A stretch of 64,000 nt of DNA, from NCBI GenBank assembly GCA_026023565.1, contig JAPETS010000012.1, forward strand, positions 124,001-188,000, read 5' to 3'. The translations under genes and the position numbers were made by a program. The DNA is from Cirrosporium novae-zelandiae. Lineage: Eukaryota. Shown here piece after piece: positions 11,658-41,496 of this stretch. Within the stretch, counting starts at the first letter, position 1; the number at the start of each line of letters is the position of its first letter. Under the pieces are notes generated by a model. The model saw only the letters and a list, made by a program, of their open reading frames with translations. It searched no databases and was not told the origin of the DNA.

Positions 11658-13830
11658 ATGAGCCAATTATGTCACGTCTGTCGAGCTCTGCCGTGGCATC
11701 AGCTCGACAGGAATAGAAAATTTCGGTATGCATGGTGGAAAAACGAGAAGCTATGCGTACCACAGAATCAGCATGAGACAAGCGTTCCCCTCAATAAAAA
11801 CGAGATTGTTTCGCTATCAACTAAAGAAAATATAGAAGTAGAGGATGAGTTTTGTTATCACACTACCCTGAATAACATTCGAAACTCATCGCAAAATGGA
11901 TGCCATTTCTGTCGCCTGGCCTGGACATCTTTATTGGACTGCACAACTGATTCCATTCCACCTAATGAGGAGGATGACCTGTTGAGCCGATTTGAAAACA
12001 ATGTTTTTCAAGTACAGCTTCGTCATGATCCTACATCAGGGAAGCTTAGTCTTGATATCAGCGCCGGTGACCTAAAGAGGCAAGCTAACCTCATGTATTC
12101 ATTCGTTTCGAGTGAGTCAGCACGAGATTATTCTAATGTCCTATGTCTCAGTGATATGTCCAGACACACCGGGAGATATTCGAAATGCCTTCTCACCGAA
12201 GCTCACTCTTTCCCCCAAATCCTCACATACCTTTGAAGTTATTCGCTATTGGATTCAAAAGTGTAATAATCTTCATCATGACTGTCCAAAGGAAAATGAC
12301 TTGACCCATCTTCCTACAAGGGTAATTGATGTTGGATCTACAAATTCCAAACAGTCACCATTCTTGTATGTCTCCTGCAGTATAAAAGCGAGGTACATTA
12401 CACTCAGTCACCGCTGGGGTTTGGGCAAGACTTTTCGCACTATAAATGCAAAAGTAGCTGAATACCAGAATGAACTCCCAGTTCATGAAATGTCACAGGT
12501 ATTTCGGGATGCAATCGAGCTCACGAGAGACCTCGGCATCCAATATCTCTGGATTGATTCTATTTGCATCATCCAAGACTCTCCCAAAGATTGGGAAGTA
12601 GAATCTAGTAAGATGGCTAACATTTACGGTAATTCATGGTTTACGATTGCTGCCGCTTTATCAGACAATATTGACACCGGACTGTTTGCACAGCGCGATC
12701 CGCTCGCCATCAAGCCATGCAGAGTCCATCTGAGATCATCCACAGACTCAGACATGGAAATAGTTAGAATATGGAAAGAAACCGAACTCCTAGGAATTAG
12801 CCTTTTGCACCGATATCTCTTATATACCCGTGCCTGGGTCTTCCAAGAACAGGCCTTATCACCAAAAATCCTACATTTCACTCCACATCAAGTGTATTGG
12901 GAATGCTTTTCCGAAAACTACGCAGAGAGCCAACCGCTACGACGTCTAGAGTGGACGGAAGCACCACCAAAACTTTCTAATTCTCAACATCGAGTCCTGC
13001 TTGGTTCTTCTGGCCACTCAAATGACGTCTTCGGGACCTGGCTCTTCTTAGTCGGAACATACACGGCACGCCAGCTGACATACGATACCGACCGACTTCC
13101 CGCATTATCCGGCATTGCGAAAGTGATTCTAGCCCGCATCGAGGCCTCCAGTAACACCGATGAGTACCTTGCCGGACTCTGGAACAGAGACATGATCCGC
13201 GGGCTTGTATGGTATCCAGATAAAGTCCGACTTCTCGGCATAAAGCACACTCGACCACTCACGTATACTGGCCCCTCATGGTCCTGGGTAGCAATCAACG
13301 GTCCAATTTCATTCCCTCTACGAAATAAAGACTCCTGGCGATATTCTTATTCACCTACATCCTGGACCGACTCTCCCGCAGTCGGAGCCCCCTGCTCAAC
13401 ACTACTCTCAGCCAAAACTCTCGCCCGTGGGCTTGACCCAACAGGACAAATTTCTTCAGCCAAACTCACGATCCTCGGACCTGTCTGCCACAACCCATTT
13501 CACCTACTCCCCCATGATCTCTCCGACACCCCCAACCCATCAAATTCCACCTGGACCAGAAAAGACGACCCTACAAACCAACCACTCCAAAACCCCCTAT
13601 TCAACCTCGACATCGATAACCCCATCCCACCCACAACCCCCAAAATAAACACCATCCTCCTCCAGCTCTACCCCAAATTCGCTTTGATCCTCGAACCCCA
13701 CTTTCAGCCCGCCGGAGTCGTAACATACCAACGGATCGGATGGTGCGCCGTAGGAGAGCATTTCACCTCCATGGCAGGAGCCGTAAGCGACTCGGATTTC
13801 ACGCAGATGGAAGTCGTAACGATCATCTAA
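11658..13830 (+). CDS. HET-domain (heterokaryon incompatibility) protein; intron 12112-12163
   Basis: HET signatures LPTRVIDV, YITLSHRWG, FRDAIELTRDLGIQYLWIDSICIIQD, WEVESSKMANIYGNS, LYTRAWVFQE, DRLPALSG, YLAGLW and PSWSW. N-terminal LCHVC..GCHFC exon joins in frame. Confidence 0.93.
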
Positions 13831-22677: not shown

Positions 22678-24390
22678 TCATACTGATAGGGTATCATATT
22701 GGTATTCCTTTCGTAGCTTTCGTATTCTTCGACTAGCTTCTGCCAACCTCATCTGCTCGGCTTTCCACCTCTCCTCTTCCTGGTTTTGTTTTGTGTTACT
22801 CGCTTTAAGCCAGGTGGTCCAAGAATTTGCGCGTCCTTGACCCCGCTCTTCTGGAAGCATGATCATCTTTTCAATCATCTTTCCCCAATTCTCCATCCCT
22901 ACTTCCAGGCACTCATTACATTTATCTTTTCCTTCTCTGTTGGTCCTGGGGTCCGAAAAGACGTTCTCGGCCATCCCAACGGCATCACGGGTCCATGCTA
23001 AACCCGAGTCTTTTGATGTTGTTGAGAATAATATTTCTCCGATATATGTCATCAGAGCTGCCTCTTCACATACTGCGTTTGGTGTGCGAATAAGTGGTTG
23101 ATCGCGATCCGCCGGTGGATCAGGGAAGAGGGGAGGGTTAAGTGACGAGCGAATAATAGACATAATGTACGGCATGCTAAAAGGCTGTTCAACAGGACCA
23201 TCCAGTGCTTCTGCTACCACTGGAGCAACAGGCATTGAGCGCCTAGCCCTGAGAACCGATAAAAAAATAGGTAAAGCTTTCGCTACGTCCCCATTTTGCG
23301 CATAATGTATCGCAAGAGACGTACTTGAGAGGACCAGATTCTCCGATATATGTATTGGCTCTGCTTTGTCCTTAATGATTCCTGTATTTAGGTCGACTAC
23401 ATCATTCCCACCCTTGGGCAGAGCGCTAACGGCAATATCAAGTGCCCAATCATACATTTCTTTAGCAGAGTCCGGAAGGCTTTTGAAGTCGAGCCAGTCT
23501 GCATAAGCTATGGCAGCATCAATACGCTGTTGTGAAGAAAAGCCAACGGTGGTCAATATTTTCAAGTAATACTGTTCAGGAGGCTGAGACGCTGGACTGC
23601 AATTATCCTCCAGCGGTGGCGCCTCTGAACCCAGCGAAACCGGATGAGGGAGAGGATTCGACGCGCCAATGACAACCTCCGGTGGAAAGCAGATATTCCG
23701 AGTCTTATCTATGACCCAGCCATCAATATTTTCTGCACACCTAGCCGCACCCATCAAAGCTTCAAAGTAGCCTCTTCTCCATGGTTCACTCTTGTCGCGT
23801 ATATCCAATCCGGTCTTCCCAACACCTTCAACAAAAAGCCCCCCGTCCTCAGTTTCCTGGATGCCTTTTCCGTCAATCTCCGGGTCTTCTAACCGTTGAA
23901 TCACCTTTTTGTAGTTCTCTTGGGCCCCCGGCCAATTGACCAACCCATTATCAAGATATTCAGGCCTCTCCATGACTTTTCCTGTGCGATAATGCCGACG
24001 TGATTCAAAAGACCATTCGGGAGGAGAAGGATTATTGCGCTCGTATTTTTCTTGCCGAAAACCCCAAGTAATGACTGCCATGAGAAACGATGCGATACCA
24101 GCAGTGATAAGTATCCTTGTGTAAAACTGCACCCTATTTTTTATGTATTGCTTTCTTTCAGTAGTGATAAGCCGGGAAAGCTGATATGGGAGTGTGATAC
24201 GGGGTAGAGGAGCGCCATATTCAGAAGGGTTATGCAGGAAAGGCAATTGTGGCCGAGGATTGTGAGATGTGATCAGGAGCAACTTGGATTTTTGAGTGAA
24301 GACTCGAGAGGAAGTATATGGATTATTTGGAGGCCTTAGAGGTCGAATGAGTGAAGGTATTCTCGTAGGTACAGATCGTGGTGGTAACAT
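22678..24390 (-). CDS. Conserved fungal protein: predicted mitochondrial presequence, one TM helix, helical/TPR-like C-terminal domain
   Basis: Intronless 570-aa ORF; Arg/Ser/Pro-rich N-terminus lacking acidic residues; TM ILITAGIASFLMAVITWGF. Function not recognised. Confidence 0.75.
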   Translation of the reverse strand: MLPPRSVPTRIPSLIRPLRPPNNPYTSSRVFTQKSKLLLITSHNPRPQLPFLHNPSEYGAPLPRITLPYQLSRLITTERKQYIKNRVQFYTRILITAGIASFLMAVITWGFRQEKYERNNPSPPEWSFESRRHYRTGKVMERPEYLDNGLVNWPGAQENYKKVIQRLEDPEIDGKGIQETEDGGLFVEGVGKTGLDIRDKSEPWRRGYFEALMGAARCAENIDGWVIDKTRNICFPPEVVIGASNPLPHPVSLGSEAPPLEDNCSPASQPPEQYYLKILTTVGFSSQQRIDAAIAYADWLDFKSLPDSAKEMYDWALDIAVSALPKGGNDVVDLNTGIIKDKAEPIHISENLVLSSTSLAIHYAQNGDVAKALPIFLSVLRARRSMPVAPVVAEALDGPVEQPFSMPYIMSIIRSSLNPPLFPDPPADRDQPLIRTPNAVCEEAALMTYIGEILFSTTSKDSGLAWTRDAVGMAENVFSDPRTNREGKDKCNECLEVGMENWGKMIEKMIMLPEERGQGRANSWTTWLKASNTKQNQEEERWKAEQMRLAEASRRIRKLRKEYQYDTLSV

Positions 24391-24798
24391 TGCGATTAGT
24401 TGTTGAGTGATGGTAGTCTGAAGCTCAATGAATTTAGTGGCTTCTCGGTTCTACAAATGAACGTCATAAAATATGAAATACAACTACCTAGGTATGTAGG
24501 ACAGATGGGCCGGTACCACTAAAAACCTACAATGTATTTGAATAGTTGGCTTAGGGATTAGTATCTTTTTTGAGATGCTATATTTTTGACAGTAACCTAG
24601 ATAGTTTATATTCATTATAATTATTGGGTAACCTTAACACCTAATATTCCCTCAGTTGGAATATCGTCCAGAGCAATCACGAATACCATTACACCCCAGA
24701 TTGCTAGGAGCATATTTCTTAGTCCAGGCTAATAGATACTATTATATATCATAACTTCGTCAAAAAAAATGCAATCATGATAACTTGACTCTGCAACT

Positions 24799-25866
24799 TC
24801 AAGGTAGGTAGAAGACTTCTTCAAGGGGTTTCCACCAAGTTCCATTGGCACTCCCTGTTGCTCCAGGGACTAAGCTCTCCTATAATTATCTTAGATTAGC
24901 AAATACTTCATGAAGGCAATAGAAAACCTACTTGCATAGCATCAGTCATTGACCACCAAGCCTGAACTTTAGGATTTTCAGCCATTCGTTTCATATCACC
25001 CTCCCAATCATTACCGATGTATCTAAATGTCGCAAAGAGTGTACGATCATTGTCATAGAATATTGAGTCTGAGAACTAAATAAGCCGTGTCATGCGGGAA
25101 CCCCAGTTTCCATATACTCACAATCCGCAATATTACTTTGTTTGATCTGATCGAGAACCTCTGGCCAAACCCTACTATGACACTCTTTATAGCCCGCTAC
25201 TGCTTCTGGTTTGAGGTGGATAATTTGAGCAATCCTACCCCCTGAGAATACAGGATTAGGTTGTGGTTGCTGGCTGGTTGACATGGTGGACAATGGAGAA
25301 ATGGGCTGCAGAGATTGGATCGATTGATCTGGTAAATATTGTAATGGCGATGACATCTGAGCCTGGGGTGGAAACGGTTGTTGCAGTTGGCTTTGCTTAA
25401 GCTGCTGTTGATGTTGTGCGTCCTTCTTCAATAATCCTTTTTTTATCCTTTGAGCAACTTTCAGCTCAACCTCTTCGCCGTATTTCTCCTTCAAGCACTC
25501 TAGAATTTCCTGTGGCTTTGTAGCTTCTGTAACATGTAGATGCCTAGCAACGGCTCCTTGAACCCATCTCTGGCGAGTAGGAACTGCTCTCTTAATGCGT
25601 TCCCTGGTATTCTGGCAAGTGTGTTGGGGATTCAGCACACTAATGAAGATTGCACCGTTTTCGTCAAGATTGGCGCGAATTCTCCAAGGGCAGTTGGAGA
25701 TTTTATCGGCACAAATGAGAATAGCGCGAGTAGTATCTTTATGATTGACCTTGTAGTCAAATTTGGCGCGGACGGACCAGTCATTGATGACCTCGATAAA
25801 ACTGGAGTAATCAGGAAATGTTGAGCCGACCTTCGGGGGAGCATGAAGAGACAAGAGGGCACTCAT
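24799..25866 (-). CDS. Fusion of a MuDR/MULE transposase-type DNA-binding domain, a Gln-rich linker and an L-rhamnose mutarotase (RhaM/DUF718) domain; exons 25866-25122, 25068-24932, 24879-24799
   Basis: N-terminus VGSTFPD..CADKISNCPWRIRA..HTC. C-terminus RIAQIIHLKPEAVAGYKECHSRVWPEV..D/YSIFYD..LFATFRYIG..AWWSMTDAMQ/ESLVPGA..WWKPLEEVFYLP*. Both introns are canonical and keep the frame. Confidence 0.85.
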
Positions 25867-26452
25867 GATTTCAAATTATGGCGTGGAGACTGTGGGGAAG
25901 ATACGGATTACCACCTTGCTGTGGCAATTGAGGTGCGACCATGTAGAGTCAAAATCCTCGGGGGGAGAGTGAGAATAAATTCCGATCCATCTTTACCACC
26001 CCGTGCTACCTTGCTACATGTCTCTTCCTTGTAGTTGTCTAGTTGTTACTCTACATTATTATTATTGAATTTCTAATATATTAATTCTCATCTCTCAATC
26101 AAATAAATATTTCATTCAGGTTATTAAGTAATAAGATGATATTGGTTTTTAGATGTGGATGAACGATGCCTTACAAGGCTAAGCTTCATCACACTGCGTT
26201 ACCGCTTTTTCTTCTTGTCGAGGCTAGAGGCGTGCCTGGAAACCATCTAGGACATGATTCATCCTGTTACCTGGTACTATGTCCAGACCTGTATCCCACC
26301 TGGAGGGAAGATAAGCCGATGCAAAGCTCCCGCCACCCTCGAGTCTTTCCTGCAGAATGCTCCGATCCAATGCAGCCTTTGTCCCAATGAAACAACGCCT
26401 TCTCCGGCTCCCGTTTCTCCCTGCATTCATAAGGCTGAAGACCCTGGGATAT

Positions 26453-28136
26453 TTAATATATAGTTTCGATCATGTATACCAATCCAAAGAATAAGAAAGC
26501 AATGGCGCCACCAATAGTCACTACCAACAGTCAACTTTACCGATAATTTATCATGTTATTATTAGGAAGACTTACCAACTCTAAGGCTGACTCTACCAGC
26601 GATGGCACGGCCGCCTATAACGGCTCCGGCGGTACACAACGAATGACCGAAGATAGCACCGCAGGTAACCCACCAGTAATCTTGACCAGCGGCCATGGCA
26701 ATCGTGGCAATTTGACTTCGATCACCCCATTCACCTAGAAATGTCATTATGAAAGTTTGTACCCATGCAGGGCTTAAAAGAAATGAAAAAAGATTGTGGA
26801 ATCCAGCGAGTAGGTTCGAGAAGGAGGAATAAGGACTTGGAGAAGGCGAACGTGATGAGGATGATGAGGGACTTGCTGGTGGAGAGGGTAGGCGTGAATT
26901 TGATCGGGTCTTTCTAGACCCTGCACGACCAGATTCAAGGATATAAGGCGAAATTGAAGACCGTCGTCGGTTCATCTTTCGTGATTGATGTGCTTTCTCC
27001 TCCAACTCCATTTCAACCTCCTTCATTTCTTCACTGGGTGTGTCATCCGGACTCATTTCAAGCCCTTCTCTTAGCATTTTAGCACCAAAAACGAAGAATA
27101 ATACGGTGGCTGCAAGATGGGTGTATTTTTGAGGCAACAGCGTTGGCACTGCGTGTCCGAAGATGGCTGAAAGTACTGTCATCACCAGAAGCGCGCAGAA
27201 GGCTGAAGAAAAAACCAGGAGTCTGGGATGCTTCATTGCCATAAGAGCTGCAATTAAAAACGTTTTGTCGCCAATCTCTGAGAATATTATCATCGAGAAG
27301 GAGAGTAGGAAGGAATGTAGGGGCTGTATAATCCCTTCATCTTGTACCGAGCCCGGGGGCAGTCCGGGGCCAGTGTGTACGATGGGCTTTTCAACATTAA
27401 GCGGGTCATCTTTGACGGATGAGGCTGGCATCGGATATGGAATATCATGAGGCTTCTCCGGAAGGTCTGTTGGTTTCTGTAGAGTAATTAGCACAGTTCG
27501 TGCCACATTTTGCGTAAGCACTTAACCAACCTCGAGACCATTCAAAGGTTTCTCTTTTACCGGTTCTTCCGTAGACGTGCCAGAGCCTTTCTCAAATGTT
27601 TCTTTGCCTTCTTGCTTTGCCAGCTTCTCTTGCTCGCTATGTGGTAAGGGAGGAGCCTCTTTTGGTGGATCAGGTTTCTTATCGGGCTTTGTACCAATGC
27701 GTCCCTGGGTCTGTCTATCTCTACTCTTTTCAGAGACGCCACCCTCAGTGCCCCTAGTGCCTTCCTTGGGTAGTATCCGGTTGGGATCATCCATAACCCC
27801 GTCGTTGGATTCCGGTATAGCTGGCACCAACTTCCATCCATCTCGCTCGGTCGTTGATAGGGGTGTGTCGCGCAATGTTGTTGGTACAGGTTTGGAAGGG
27901 GCATCATCGTCGCCAGCAATTTTTGCCAACTTTCTATCTCTCTCAGCTGCTGTCTCCACCCATGGACCGGCATGTGGTTTTCCATCCTTGCCATCAACCG
28001 GAGCATAAAGGGTACCGGCTTCAGCTTTGGAGGTGGCTATAGCAGGAGCTGCATCCGCAGTTGCGAGGGCGACGTGCGGGAAGATTACCGGTAAGAGGAG
28101 GAGAAATAGAGGGGACGGTATATTAGGGAGCTTCAT
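26453..28136 (-). CDS. GDT1: GDT1/TMEM165 (UPF0016) Golgi Ca2+/Mn2+ transporter with long luminal N-terminus; 3 exons
   Basis: Twin family motifs SEIGDKTF and GEWGDRSQIAT; signal peptide MKLPNIPSPLFLLLLPV; last exon VTIGGAIAFLFFGLVYMIETIY*. Confidence 0.92.
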
Positions 28137-32960: not shown

Positions 32961-34749
32961 TTAATCACTCCCGCTATCATCCACTGCTTCTTTCTCACTT
33001 AACCCCCCATCCTCATCTTCATCCTCATCTTCATCCACCATCATCACCTCACCAACCTTCATCTTCCCCTGCAAAACCTTCTCCCTCCTCCTCTCACCCT
33101 CCCTAGCTCTCTCCCCCTTCTTCTCCCGCCGCCGTGCCTCCATCTTCTCTTCTTTTTCTCGGAGATCTGCGTTCGCGTTTGTGAGGTCGACGAGATGGGC
33201 CAGGAGCTTTTTTTGCTGCAGGGTTTGCGCGTGGAGTTTGGCTTTTAGGGTTGCCAGTTCTGTTGCGGTTGAGGATTGCTGGGGGTCTGGGGAGGAGGGT
33301 AGGGGGATGTAACTTGTTGTGGTGGTGGAGTGGGTGGAGAGTTCAGAGAGGCCTGCTGCTAGTATGGAGGCGGGGAATGAGGGGTGGGTTAGGGAGGTGG
33401 CGAAGGTGGTTTGTGGGGCGGTTGATTCTGCTGCGGAGGAGAGGGATAGAGATGAGGATGGGAGTATGGCTGTAGGGAATTTGGCTGAGAAATTGTAGTT
33501 TGCTGGTATGCCGTGGGTGTGGTTGCCACCTCCCGTGCTAGTAGTGTCTGACAGCGAGTGGTCGTATCTTGGTTTTATCACGGCGTCGAGTTTTAGATTT
33601 GGTGGATGTTCGTTTGGGAAGCCTGAAGGTGGAAGCATGAGGATATTTGTGATTGGGATGGAGATGCTGGATACAGTCGCGTCGTATTTTCCGGTGTAGG
33701 CGTCCCAGGCGGTGATTTTTCCGTCGCTGTGGCCCGATAGCAGGGTGCTACCGTCGTAGCTCAGAGCGAGGCATTGGCAAGCTCCTACAGAGTCGTCGGG
33801 AGCTATGTGACAGTCGTTGGGGGAAAGCTGTCTTGGGGCATTTTGGGTAGAAGCATCTCCTAGTGGGCTTTCTAGGGATTTGGAGGCATAGAAATCAACT
33901 CCCTGGATGCTGCCGTTAGAGTATCCTATACAAAAACCTCGATCGGCAGGTTCAATGGTTAAGCATAATGGTGTATGTGGCAGTAGATATGTTAGCAGAG
34001 GAACGCCATTTGTATAGGACCAGACTATGCATGTATTATCCTCAGATGCCGATATGGCGATATTGGTATCGGGGGAACTGTGACCCAGGGCCAGACTTGT
34101 GATGGGCGCACGATGGTTAGATAATGTCCTGACTGGAGTATCATGTGGCGATTCAGTTTGGTCTATTGAAGAGTCTTGTATAAAAGAGAGAAGGTTTGGT
34201 AGGGACCAGACATGTATATTTGAATCTGCGGATCCAGAGAGCACGAAGTTGGAGCTTGCATCGATAGAGAGGCATGTTACAGGTTGAAGGTGGGAGGCTT
34301 GAGTGGTTACTTGTCGGCCGGTACAGACCTAAAAGAATAAATTATCAGCATCATCCTGCAGAGAATATAGAAAAATATCAATGAGCGATTCAACATACCT
34401 CCCAAACAATAACGCGCCCTCCTTCCGTCCCCAAGATCAAAAATCCAGCACCTCCGTCGCTCTCCGCAAAAACAACACTGTGGATTTTTTCTGGGAAAGG
34501 GATGAGGGTCTCCTGGTTCCCTTTCTCGCGATTATAGACGTGCACAGCCGCCTTCTCGGCCTGCGCGGCGTATACGTGGGAGGAGCTCACAGCCAAACAT
34601 TTCGGTGGAGTTGAGCTCTTCTTGAAGCTTGCTCTTGTTGCTGAAATGGGCTGCAGCTCATGAATGTGGATTCCGGCATCTTTAATAACGGCGGGAACTG
34701 CAGACTTCTCTGAGCTCAAAGTCGAGTATATGAAGCTTTCGGTAAGCAT
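32961..34749 (-). CDS. IPI3: Pre-rRNA-processing WD40 protein Ipi3 (Rix1 complex); intron 34329-34398
   Basis: MLTESF..FKKSST..HVYAAQAEKAAVHVY..GNQETLIPFPEKI..LGTEGGRVIVWE/VCTGR..SHLQPVT..LSGSADSNIHVWSL; WD repeats followed by a C-terminal coiled coil. Confidence 0.9.
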
Positions 34750-37344: not shown

Positions 37345-40300
37345 CACCCTGACTAGGTCTCCTCGTGGGATTGTTCATGCTACCCATTTGTTTGTTTCCT
37401 TCTATCAAGTTATCGAAAATGCTTTCCAATATTGGATCTTCCTCATCGTCCATCCGATGCGTTGAACTGGTGATGATCGTCCCTAAACACGGGCTATCAG
37501 CATCGATTTTTGAGATGAGGCAGCCGCAATTATACTTTCATCAACCACCCAGAGCCACAATTGATCCACTCTTAATACACAAGTCTTTTTGCTGTTTTGT
37601 TTGCTAAAATAGCGCGTTACAACCTGATCGCCATCTCGGAAGTCAGTATCGTCTAAAAGAGAATAATAGTATTGGTCTAAAGTCCTTGACTCGTGCACAC
37701 GATTCTTATAGACATTGGTTAGTTGCTCGTGGAGCTTATGCACACTGATGGGTTCCCAATCGTCTGCCGAAATGTTCACATTACTAGGCAGCTTTCCCTT
37801 AGAAAGTTTTTCTAACTGTAGATACGCGTCTCTTTGAGGGTTTTCATTGTCCTTCAAGCTAGGAGCTACTTCTTTTGTGGGGTCTTTCACTGCCGAAAAT
37901 GAGAACGTCAGATAAGGCATCTGCGACCTTGGTCAGAAGGAAAAATCGCACTGCAACGGTCATACGTACGTAAATAGCGGTCCTATAATGGGCGTCGACT
38001 AGGCCTGCATTTAGCTGACTTCCTGCTCTTGACTTTGATTTCACTGCATCATTCTTTATCAGCTTGTCCTCGCTCTGCTTATTTTGAATTTTTTCAGCTG
38101 CTCGATAATTATCTGAACACAACTCTCCATGTTGTTTTTCCCGGTCTGCTTTGACGGCCCCAGGGAAGTTCGATGGTCCACTGATATTTTTTTCCGGTGC
38201 CACTGGTCTTCCCTCTTTCAATTTTTGGTTCTCCGCTTCTGGTCGGTTCACCCTTGAAATGGGTTTTTGCTGCTTTCTTCCTTTTGGCTCTTCGGTATCC
38301 AGCACCTTACTTTCCTGCTAATAAGATCTTTTCAGAGCTTCCCGCTATGCTAGCATATCCGTTAGTCTCTAAGCTATTTTCTTCAATTAAACAGACTTAC
38401 TGTACACAATGGCTTCATGTATCGCACTCGGCCTGCGACCCCTGAGCGCTCGTGCGAACCTCTCTTAACAAACTCACTTAATTCAAAATGCTCTTTATTC
38501 GTCTTACATATCTTTAGCGTCAAGTCCTTGGAAAGTACGTTAATTCACTATATTATAAGCTTTAGATGGAAAGTTTTACCTCAATCCATTCCGTCTAATT
38601 ATAGTTAAGTTAGCCTCATTGCCAGCCATGAATAACACAACTGTTGACTTACATTGTTCACCGCGACATGTATCCATCTAAACCGGAAATGAGAACGAGA
38701 TCCCGCTTGTGCTTTAGCTTCATTTCCACCCGCTGTTGATGTAAGAGCTTGGTATTCTCCATGGTCGATGCATTCAGACCCTGTTGCTGTAGGTTCATCA
38801 ATTGTCTTTAGGGTGTGTCCATCGGATTTTATAGGGGCGGTCCTCCCGCTTCTATCCCCTTCTCGTAGTTCTCGCTCCTGGGCATCATTGATGCCAGACA
38901 TGACTTTCTCCGGCCCATCTCCGTAGATAACTTCAAAGACATTACTTAGACGAGGTTGGAAATCAGTCCGACCATTCTCTTCAAAGAAATCTACGATAGT
39001 AGCGTCAAACTTTTCACACAAGTCTCGCTGCTTGGCTGGAATAGACCGTGTCTTTGGCTCTCCATCAGAATTGCCGGAATAGGCCGCTCCTTCCACGACC
39101 GGAGGTTTGTGGAGAATGTCAAATATTTTTGCATATGCAATTTTTGATGATTCTTTTCCCTTGGTAGCTTTCTCGCTGTCGATGTCTCCTGCGGATCTAC
39201 TCGAATTTCTCTTCATCTTGCCAGCGATGATCTTAGCAATTTTGACGTCCTTTGGTTTGACTCTTTTGGCAAACAGCTCCGAAACTACGCTCCGATGACC
39301 ATGGTAAACTGCCCAGTGCAACGGTGTCCATCCAGTGGAGTCAAACTCTAGCCCTCTTACCTTTTGAGTAGAAAGGTCTTCTTTATAGACCAGCAGCAAT
39401 GTTTCCAGTTTTCCAGCCTTGGCTACTAAATTCGGCGTGTCTTCTAGAGCTCCAACATCCTTTCTCAGATCAGTCAGGGGCATCCCCCACAATAACCGGA
39501 CAGCTGCGAGTTGATAACCTCCATTAACCGCTAGAGAAAGTGGTGCTTTCCCATGCTCCGTCCTTTCCACTATTTTGCTCTGCTATTCTTCCGGATAGAG
39601 CTCTTCTAATTTCACCAATAGTAATGATATAACTGCATCGTGGCCATTTATCGCTGCCAAATGCAGCGCTGTCTCGCCGTTTTTTGACTTGCAGCGAATC
39701 TGATCGGAGACTAAACTATCCTCTAGTAAAGTAAGCACAACTGCGTCATGCCCCTTAATAGCTGCAAGATCTAGTGCGATATGATCGTTCGGATCTTTTG
39801 CCATAATCCCCACACCACTTCGCAAGAGTGCATGTGCAAGATACTGTAGCCCTCTGTGGGCCGCGACATGTAGCAAAGTCTCGCCATCTCTCGCTACTGA
39901 CCGTGGAGACTGAAGATCTTCCCGGTGTTTAAGGTACAAGGTCGCCGCCAGAGGATCTGCTTTATTCAACACCGCCCAGTGAAATAAGGCTTCTTCCTTG
40001 CTGAATGTTTGAGAGTTCCCGAAAAAAAGACGATCAAATAGCCATTCTTGAACCTTCCTAACCTCGCAACGATTCACATGATAAGTATCTTCGGCCTGGG
40101 GATTCTCTAGTAATTTTATTTCTTGCTTCATTAAAAGGAGTACAATGCCCTCCTCATACGCTTCGATAGCCAAGGTAAGTGCAGTAGCCCCATCGTTTCC
40201 TTCTGCGGTAATAGTATCTATATCCAGTTCAGGTAGCAGAAGTTCTATTACACCTGTATAACCATGAGTAACTGCAGAATGTAGCGGTGTCCATCCATTG

Positions 40301-41496
40301 TTGCTCTTATTTTTAACATCAGCACGACTTTTGAGGAAAATCTCTATCACCTCTTTTTTCCCGTGGGCAGCAGCCATATACAAGGCTGTCAAAGTAGAAC
40401 GAGTAGCTTTTGCTTCAATATTCGTGCCGTGCTTCAAGAGCACTTTAACAACTGATGCATGTCCTTTCGCAACTGCTAGATGAAGTGCTGTTCACCCGTT
40501 GCTATCCTTGGATGGTATATCTGCCCCACGTTGAAGACATGTCTCCACAGTCAGATTGCAGTCCTCTCCGGCAGCTATGTAGGGCGCCACTTCACTGAAC
40601 GTAGCTATAGTGGTAGCCCCGATGTCTGCGTCGTGAAACAGTAGGAGCTCTACAACTTTGGCTTCGCCAATCTGAGAAGCAATATGTAAGGGAGTCCATC
40701 CACCGGATCTTCCTTCGAGCAACACACTCTTTATGTTAATCTCACTAGCACGTGATAAGATCTTCGCCATAATATCTGATGCACAGTATCGAGCAGCTAG
40801 ATATAGTGTAAACTTTTCACGGTCCGCATCATAGCCGTTCTCGTGCATTTCAAACTTGGCTTCGATATTCGCGCCCTGATCTAGGAGTGTCTGAAATTTT
40901 TCTGCATCTTTATCCATAATTGCCTTGAGGATATCTTTATTCTTCTTTGTAACTTCATCAGGATCATTCGTTGTTGGTGAGGAAGCCTGACCTTCAAGGC
41001 ATTTGGCTTCATCATTCCCAGCTCCCGAGGCGGGACCTTGGTCAGCCTCATTCTGTCGAACTATTATATCACTCTCAATTTGGTCGGCTTTGTCCGTAGG
41101 AGGCACTACACGACACTTTTCGTGGGGTTCAGGCTTGCAGCCGATGTATTCAGCTTCGGAGTGAGCTGTATCGTTGCGAGACGGTTCAGGAACACTTAGA
41201 GCAGCAGGATTTACTGGAGAAGCAGGATCTCCATCTGGTTCGAGGTCATCAAATGTAACAATATCCCCCTCTTTAGCGGTCATATGAGCTGGAGTAGGTT
41301 GGTCATTTAACTGTCCGGTCGCCTGCTCTTCATTACCAGTACGAAGAGCTCCACCATTTAGATCGGTTGTTTTCTCTCCAGAATTCTGGTCGGTTCTAGG
41401 TTCAATCGTTTCTTCGTCCTGTGCCATTGATCCAGACCCTGGATTTGAGACTGTCTCAACCTCATCGATTTCTCGGGGCGTATTGTTGTCGGCCAT
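37345..41496 (-). pseudogene. Ankyrin-repeat plus CorA-like-domain gene, interrupted by in-frame stops and truncated at the 3' end
   Basis: About 10 ankyrin repeats (GWTPLH, GETALHLAA), then RWIHVAVNN/TEWIE/DL, MPYLTF, HESRTLDQYYY..RDGDQVV and LRVDQLWLW, motifs of fungal Ank-CorA-like proteins. In-frame TGA at 40492 and TAG at 39583. Similarity ends near 37345 with no C-terminal TM helices. Confidence 0.75.

Follow-up and report, generated by a model that had tools for sequence, protein, structure and literature searches.

Within a 64,000-nucleotide stretch of DNA from a metagenome-assembled genome (MAG) of Cirrosporium novae-zelandiae (assembly GCA_026023565.1, contig JAPETS010000012.1, positions 124,001 to 188,000; hereafter the window), we found a gene in which the N-terminal DNA-binding module of a Mutator-like element (MULE) transposase is joined in one reading frame to a complete L-rhamnose mutarotase (rhaM) domain. 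The gene lies on the minus strand at positions 24799-25866 and encodes 320 amino acids. A protein with the same architecture, P0155, was found in one further, clearly diverged fungus. We consider it highly probable that this is a real fusion gene, conserved and maintained under selection. Domestication of the transposase-derived module is supported at the level of sequence.

Gene structure

The gene opens with an ATG at 25866, closes with a TGA stop codon ending at 24799 and, spliced from the sequence, consists of three exons. A preliminary description of this DNA had proposed precisely these boundaries. It had also described a single open exon with a MuDR-type domain, a Gln/Pro/Ser-rich linker and the start of a rhaM domain, the latter being completed across two canonical introns, and each of these elements was recovered here. 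Exon 1 (25122-25866) is a single uninterrupted open frame (P0001) in which Pfam detects both DBD_Tnp_Mut (PF03108) and rhaM (PF05336). Intron 1 (25069..25121; 53 nt, GT..AG) is spliced identically in the NCBI and ENA gene models, and the stand-alone rhaM protein P0003 reads through at the same point. Exon 2 (24932-25068) encodes the part of rhaM running from YSIFYD to WWSMTDAMQ and matches Pfam rhaM positions 40-82 (E 3.9e-9). Intron 2 (24880..24931; 52 nt, GT..AG) is followed by exon 3 (24799-24879), which encodes the C-terminal strand of rhaM and ends in EEVFYLP and the stop codon.

In the NCBI annotation, the gene product is a hypothetical protein (P0002) of the C. novae-zelandiae MAG, a member of the Xylobotryomycetes. 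Its first two exons are identical to ours; its last exon differs, and a 35-residue tail is taken from an open reading frame (ORF) at 24621-24728 (minus strand) instead of the exon at 24799-24879. Our spliced model aligns with residues 11-124 of P0154, a stand-alone fungal rhaM of 126 residues, including the C-terminus encoded by exon 3. Furthermore, a metagenome rhaM locus, L003, crosses the junction between exons 2 and 3 without a gap. Because of these two alignments, we take 24799-24879 as the right third exon in this predicted splice model, and the last exon of the NCBI model is probably wrong.

A contig of 12,087 nt, produced by a second assembler from the probable source run, covers positions 23500-27500 with 0 differences; as it was built from the same reads, it argues only against a mis-join. 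The fusion gene is a host gene that is single-copy within the 64-kb window.

The transposase-derived N-terminal module

Residues 1-148 (25423..25866, minus strand, as for all features of the gene) form a module derived from a MULE transposase, recognised by phmmer and AlphaFold and made up of an N-terminal helix, a four-stranded zinc finger and three helices. Within this N-module, the Pfam profile DBD_Tnp_Mut covers residues 12-67 (25666..25833) with an E-value of 8e-8 and a score of 32.3 bits against a gathering cutoff of 25, which bears out the MuDR-type assignment made in the preliminary description. The C-x6-C-x22-H-x-C spacing given there likewise corresponds to four putative metal ligands, C52, C59, H82 and C84 (25615..25713). 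They are near-invariant in an alignment of 50 family sequences and are all kept in P0155. According to the family definitions in the available excerpt of Babu et al. 2006 (PMC1702500), a short cysteine spacer combined with H-x-C marks the 'HxC' type of MuDR finger, and by this pattern the N-module is an 'HxC'-type MuDR WRKY-GCM1 DNA-binding domain.

The AlphaFold model of the N-module has a predicted local distance difference test (pLDDT) score of 92.8 and a predicted template modelling (pTM) score of 0.84. It comprises a helix at residues 20-34 and strands at 38-43, 47-52, 62-67 and 73-79, followed by three helices. These last form a segment spanning residues 99-149 (25420..25572; helices 99-109, 118-129 and 135-149), which in transposases leads to the catalytic core and with which the homology to transposases ends. 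The closest solved structure is that of yeast Aft2 with DNA (4lmg), with a Foldseek E-value of 1.7e-4 and a VIA Z of 8.4 over 104 residues; the next unrelated row has a Z of 5.7, and WRKY domains follow at 4.3-5.0.

Residues 1-150 were compared by phmmer with 1.84 billion representative proteins, yielding 282 relatives at E<=1e-3; the 150 best of these were considered further. The best non-self match, P0004, is a transposase with DBD_Tnp_Mut, MULE catalytic and SWIM domains that shares 42% identity over residues 1-146. A Pfam scan of the 149 non-self relatives among the best 150 of 282 (77 at E<=1e-3 and 72 at E<=1e-5) detected a MULE catalytic domain in 13 of them. In the 50-sequence alignment, the relatives continue past a helix ending in '..LL' into the transposase core; at this point the window protein changes to a Q-rich linker. 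The end of this helix may be an exon/intron or module border in fungal MULE genes, which may explain the clean breakpoint.

Beyond the breakpoint, no part of the transposase was recovered. Pfam found neither the MULE catalytic domain (PF10551) nor the SWIM finger in the exon-1 frame. Searches by tblastn with 15 transposase-type relatives detected no remnants of the core downstream of the N-module in any frame: 14 of the 15 match 25417-25866 only, with matches ending at 25417-25477, and the remaining one gave no match. Credible terminal inverted repeats were not found in the region 23500-28000, where the best inverted pairs reach 70-76% over 21-30 nt. The Pfam, tblastn and inverted-repeat searches are thus in line with the preliminary description, which had seen neither a DDE domain nor terminal inverted repeats. 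The 64-kb window holds no second copy of the N-module and no related MULE. As for base composition, the MULE half is gene-like, with no signature of repeat-induced point mutation (TpA/ApT 0.67) and no foreign composition.

Among the relatives themselves, many short ones (P0009, P0025, P0031 and others) stop just past the same '..LL' helix. Others combine the N-module with different partners, namely Fungal_trans_2 (P0115), SH3 (P0041) and CCHC zinc knuckles (P0070 and P0071). The latter four may represent other domestications or gene-model artefacts. The N-module seems to have been recruited repeatedly.

A second fusion protein with the same architecture

A search with the rhaM part led to P0153, a 5'-truncated gene model whose 90% cluster also contains P0155. 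A second organism with the fusion was thereby found. P0155 has 338 residues and is encoded on an 11.9-kb ENA metagenome contig; it carries PF03108 at residues 13-77 (34.1 bits) and PF05336 at residues 242-326, in the same order as the window protein.

Over the whole protein, the two fusions are 52% identical. The N-modules share 57% identity with two small indels, and the rhaM domains share 80% over 92 residues. The linker cannot be aligned with its counterpart, which is Q/L/P/H-rich, in frame and 90 residues long versus 62 in the window protein. Compared with the stand-alone P0154, which NCBI assigns to Geopyxis carbonaria, a Pezizomycete, the rhaM domains of both fusions show 68-74% identity. 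The fusions thus resemble each other only slightly more than either resembles a protein from a distant class (80% versus 68-74% in rhaM), and therefore we infer an old lineage split between them.

In a full-length model of P0155, the N-module has a pLDDT above 90. Residues 153-197 are modelled as helical with values of ~65-86, and residues 199-244 fall below 50. Instead of being simply disordered, residues 153-197 may form a Q-rich coiled segment.

We looked for further fusions in several collections. Word-index protein searches were sparse (2 of 232 candidates, 2 of 7 and 1 of 1 matched), so that the absence of further fusions was weakly tested by them. When metagenome contigs were scanned with the alignment of the N-module, 312 pattern matches were obtained, 0 of them relatives, and a scan with the full-length alignment gave three loci, all of them stand-alone rhaM and no further fusion. 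Two of these, L001 and L002, show 42-44% identity; the third, L003, shows 69% identity over residues 265-319 and has no MULE part upstream. The ESM Atlas returned no usable match.

The existence of P0155 bears directly on whether the fusion could be an artefact, arising from mis-assembly of the MAG or from a chance frame that joins a dead transposon fragment to a rhaM gene. The record is indeed a MAG, and at least one exon of the NCBI model is probably wrong. Against this, the same architecture is found on two contigs of unrelated metagenome source, and the fusion lies inside a single exon, so that no splicing is needed to produce it. The identical contig of the second assembler points the same way, although its shared reads make it only partly independent. 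We regard an artefact as highly improbable.

Signs of selection on the transposase-derived half

The N-modules of the window protein and P0155 align over 147 columns, of which 83 are identical and 64 different. Family conservation is higher at the identical than at the differing columns (mean 0.477 versus 0.354; Mann-Whitney p=8.5e-5), and identity between the two fusions falls from 75% in the most conserved quartile of columns to 33% in the least conserved one. Both proteins keep W30, F36, C52, C59, H82, C84, W101 and T116, which are near-invariant in the 50-sequence family. Because the differences between the fusions fall mostly on columns that are variable in the family, this one sequence pair suggests that the N-module is under purifying selection. 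When neutral evolution was simulated, ~0.27 substitutions per site were needed to bring identity down to 57%, and at that level the frame remained open in ~3-7% of runs; at 0.5 substitutions per site, it remained open in 0.8%. The domesticated-transposon half proposed in the preliminary description has thus held up: the transposase core is gone, and the MULE half is 57% identical in P0155, with its ligands kept and its substitutions concentrated on variable positions. Of the three outcomes that the description had named as refuting its reading, two were examined and did not arise: an N-terminal domain without a match to the MULE profile, and a fusion lacking in relatives with a neutrally evolving MULE part.

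The mutarotase domain, the linker and the internal ATG

The rhaM domain begins in exon 1, where residues 211-248 and the first base of codon 249 (25122..25236) correspond to Pfam rhaM positions 1-39 and contain a Y-x3-H-x2-VWPE motif. In the frame of this exon, the profile matches residues 211-249 with an E-value of 2.6e-10, and exon 2 carries on at profile position 40. Pfam and the alignment with P0154 indicate that the C-terminal 110 residues form a complete rhaM domain. Among solved structures, its closest relatives in sequence are 7byu, an L-fucose mutarotase (E 2.9e-16, with P0155 as the query), and then the L-rhamnose mutarotases 6hhn, 1x8d and 2qlx. The YKECH..VWPE motif is present in both fusion proteins and aligns with 7byu and 1x8d, its tyrosine and histidine matching Y18 and H22 of 1x8d. 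These two residues were reportedly given a catalytic role by Ryu et al. in 2005. Since intron 1 matches the read-through point in the stand-alone P0003, the rhaM half looks like a resident gene and not like a captured fragment.

Between the two domains, residues 149-210 (25237..25422) form a Q/S/P-rich linker of 62 residues, with 17 Q, 10 S and 10 P, in agreement with the Gln/Pro/Ser-rich composition described beforehand. The linker contains the internal ATG pointed out in the preliminary description, Met195 (25282..25284; CCACCATGTC), which stands in the context CCACCATG and is invariant between P0002 and P0155. Met195 is located 16 residues before the RIAQI motif; in the stand-alone rhaM P0154, the distance from the start to this motif is 10 residues. 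Met195 is probably the ancestral rhaM start, and the linker probably the former leader.

A start codon at this position also lends itself to a different explanation, according to which the gene is mainly an enzyme gene. The working product would then be free mutarotase made from Met195 on a shorter transcript, and the MULE frame would be a tolerated, perhaps weakly useful 5' extension, for instance one that acts as a regulatory leader or gives rise to a minor isoform. Both fusions keep Met195 within a strong start context, and it sits where stand-alone rhaM genes begin. Moreover, rhaM is complete with its catalytic motifs and is the better-conserved half of the protein (80% versus 57%). However, a leader without constraint at the protein level would be expected to decay, as the neutral simulation indicates, and two diverged organisms both keep the MULE frame open and in register with rhaM. 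Its metal ligands and core residues are all kept, its substitutions are biased to variable positions, and the linker, although it goes from 62 to 90 residues, still preserves the frame. We consider it unlikely that the gene is mainly an enzyme gene.

Proposed origin and mechanism

With Met195 as the probable old rhaM start and the breakpoint at the putative '..LL' border, the fusion may stem from a transposase first exon that was captured in front of rhaM. Either a MULE or just its first exon would have landed upstream of a resident rhaM gene, whose old 5' leader would have become the linker and whose old start would survive as Met195. In the resulting protein, the N-module would recognise specific DNA in the manner of the related Aft2 finger. 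Solved homologues of the rhaM domain are dimers, and here the domain would bring two fingers together; with its sugar pocket intact, it could also make DNA binding or activation dependent on L-rhamnose or L-fucose. Between the two domains, the Q-rich linker would serve as a spacer or activation region, and Met195 may additionally yield free mutarotase.

Judging from its domain content, the protein may therefore be a transposon-derived, one-component, sugar-responsive transcription regulator, a tentative reading to which we give somewhat less than an even chance. A more specific version is a eukaryotic one-component sugar switch in which the MuDR finger acts on host promoters, the sugar-binding mutarotase both dimerises the finger and sets its activity in response to L-rhamnose or L-fucose, and the free enzyme is perhaps made from the old start; in this complete form, the scheme is rather unlikely.

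Several observations weigh against a sugar-responsive regulator. Just one other organism with the fusion was found, and rhaM occurs in 0 of the 149 other listed relatives of the N-module (best 150 of 282); its distribution may therefore be very narrow. The active-site motifs of rhaM are fully intact, which fits a plain enzyme and a sensor equally well. No sugar-catabolism genes were seen near the fusion gene among its neighbours in the window (GDT1, HET, WD40, ankyrin and ORFs without assignment). The rhaM half of the full-length P0155 model reaches a pLDDT of just 56-66, with a shallow alignment and its C-terminal strand missing. The argument for selection draws on protein patterns and an assumed deep split.

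The finger could also act on transposons rather than on host promoters. Truncated transposases repress transposition elsewhere, for example the KP repressor of the P element, and the window protein might similarly be a DNA-binding-only transposase, dimerised by rhaM, which sits on the ends of related MULEs and represses their transposition while the sugar pocket is irrelevant. What the protein has kept corresponds precisely to the end-binding module of a transposase, real transposases are among its closest relatives (MULE catalytic domain in 13 of the 149 listed), and a dimeric partner would be expected to raise affinity for paired sites. Yet the 64-kb window contains no related MULE copy, and the closest transposase, P0004, is just 42% identical, so that no matching target element is evident. 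In addition, full retention of the rhaM active-site motifs would be unexpected if dimerisation were all that counted. Such a role in transposon control appears quite unlikely to us.

Relation to known systems

New transcription factors are known to have arisen from the DNA-binding domains of transposases. The yeast transcription factors Aft1/Aft2/Rcs1 and Rbf1 share with the sugar-regulator candidate described here a MULE-derived DNA-binding domain, and the Aft2 structure 4lmg is the closest solved one to the N-module. The activity of Aft is ligand-dependent, the ligand being an Fe-S cluster. The likeness to Aft is one of fold only, as the Pfam AFT profile (PF08731) gives an E-value of 0.19 and 12.5 bits against a cutoff of 21.6, the cysteine spacer of the window finger has 6 residues, and the identity of the N-module to 4lmg is 14-17%. 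Unlike the window protein, Aft-type factors are without an enzyme domain. FHY3/FAR1 of plants are MULE-derived transcription factors that retain the whole transposase-like core and the SWIM finger, whereas the window protein retains only the first ~148 residues. The preliminary description had cited Aft1/Rcs1/Rbf1 and FHY3/FAR1 as domesticated MULE DNA-binding domains, and this comparison has to be qualified: as classified in the excerpted text of PMC1702500, they, including FAR1, are of the insert-containing type, and the window finger is of the short-spacer HxC type, which leaves them as sister-family analogies only.

On the enzyme side, the protein contains a full-length PF05336 member, as do the rhaM/YiiL/RhaU L-rhamnose mutarotases and FucM (PDB 1x8d, 2qlw/2qlx, 6hhn and 7byu). 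Stand-alone rhaM proteins are single-domain enzymes of ~105-145 residues, unlike the fusion, to which a DNA-binding module and linker of 210 residues are added at the N-terminus. With the autonomous fungal MULE transposases of the Hop and Mutyl types, including P0004, it shares homology over its N-terminal 147 residues (42% identity to P0004). It differs from them in being without the catalytic domain, the SWIM finger and terminal repeats, and no extra copies are present in the window.

The closest precedent comes from filamentous fungi, in which fusions of a MULE WRKY-GCM1 finger with isochorismatase have been described and the enzyme was proposed to act as a sensor of small-molecule effectors (Babu et al. 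2006, PMC1702500, in the excerpt available). The same excerpt reports stand-alone as well as fused fungal MULE fingers. The preliminary description knew of no such architecture from the literature; these fusions and the accompanying sensor proposal are a precedent for its idea. As far as the excerpt describes them, the isochorismatase fusions of filamentous ascomycetes resemble the window protein in joining a transposase-derived zinc finger without its core to a small-molecule enzyme domain. They differ in their partner, which here is rhaM, and in their finger, which belongs there to an insert-containing family and here to the HxC/MuDR type. A literature follow-up on the MULE-finger/isochorismatase fusions found nothing beyond PMC1702500, and in its excerpted text this 2006 survey describes no fungal transcription factor from the HxC family. 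A further literature search, covering main texts, returned, among the results listed, no report that links a rhamnose mutarotase to a transposase or to a MULE domain and none on fungal rhaM. New here are rhaM as the enzyme partner, a finger of the HxC family, a probable ancestral start codon that is still visible, and one conserved ortholog.

Few cases are available in which a transposase DNA-binding domain is joined directly to a small-molecule enzyme, the only precedent found being the isochorismatase fusion described in 2006. The gene described here is a clean case, with a sharp breakpoint, the likely ancestral start of the enzyme still visible and both halves kept in a second lineage. If the mutarotase is a ligand sensor, the protein would be a compact, engineerable sugar-responsive regulator, and it would illustrate how eukaryotes can build one-component regulators of the bacterial style by exon capture. 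If the finger serves another end, such as transposon silencing or tethering of the enzyme, the gene would still represent a datable domestication from the MuDR 'HxC' finger family.

Genomic neighbourhood

Directly upstream of the fusion gene and on the same strand lies an exon of a GDT1-family cation/proton antiporter (26565-27521, minus strand), leaving ~700 bp of intergenic sequence for a promoter. Antisense to this exon, a plus-strand similarity to MULE catalytic domains at 26872-27192 was considered and judged to be due to chance: P0004 matches with an E-value of 1e-4 only at word size 2, P0079 matches with an E-value of 0.5, and the frame contains 3 stops. Directly downstream, an ORF of 590 residues (22681-24450, minus strand) has no Pfam match at E<=1e-4. 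The wider neighbourhood includes a HET (heterokaryon incompatibility) gene, a WD40 gene and ankyrin-repeat ORFs at 12076-13827 (plus strand), 32964-34328 (minus strand) and 38608-40491 (minus strand).

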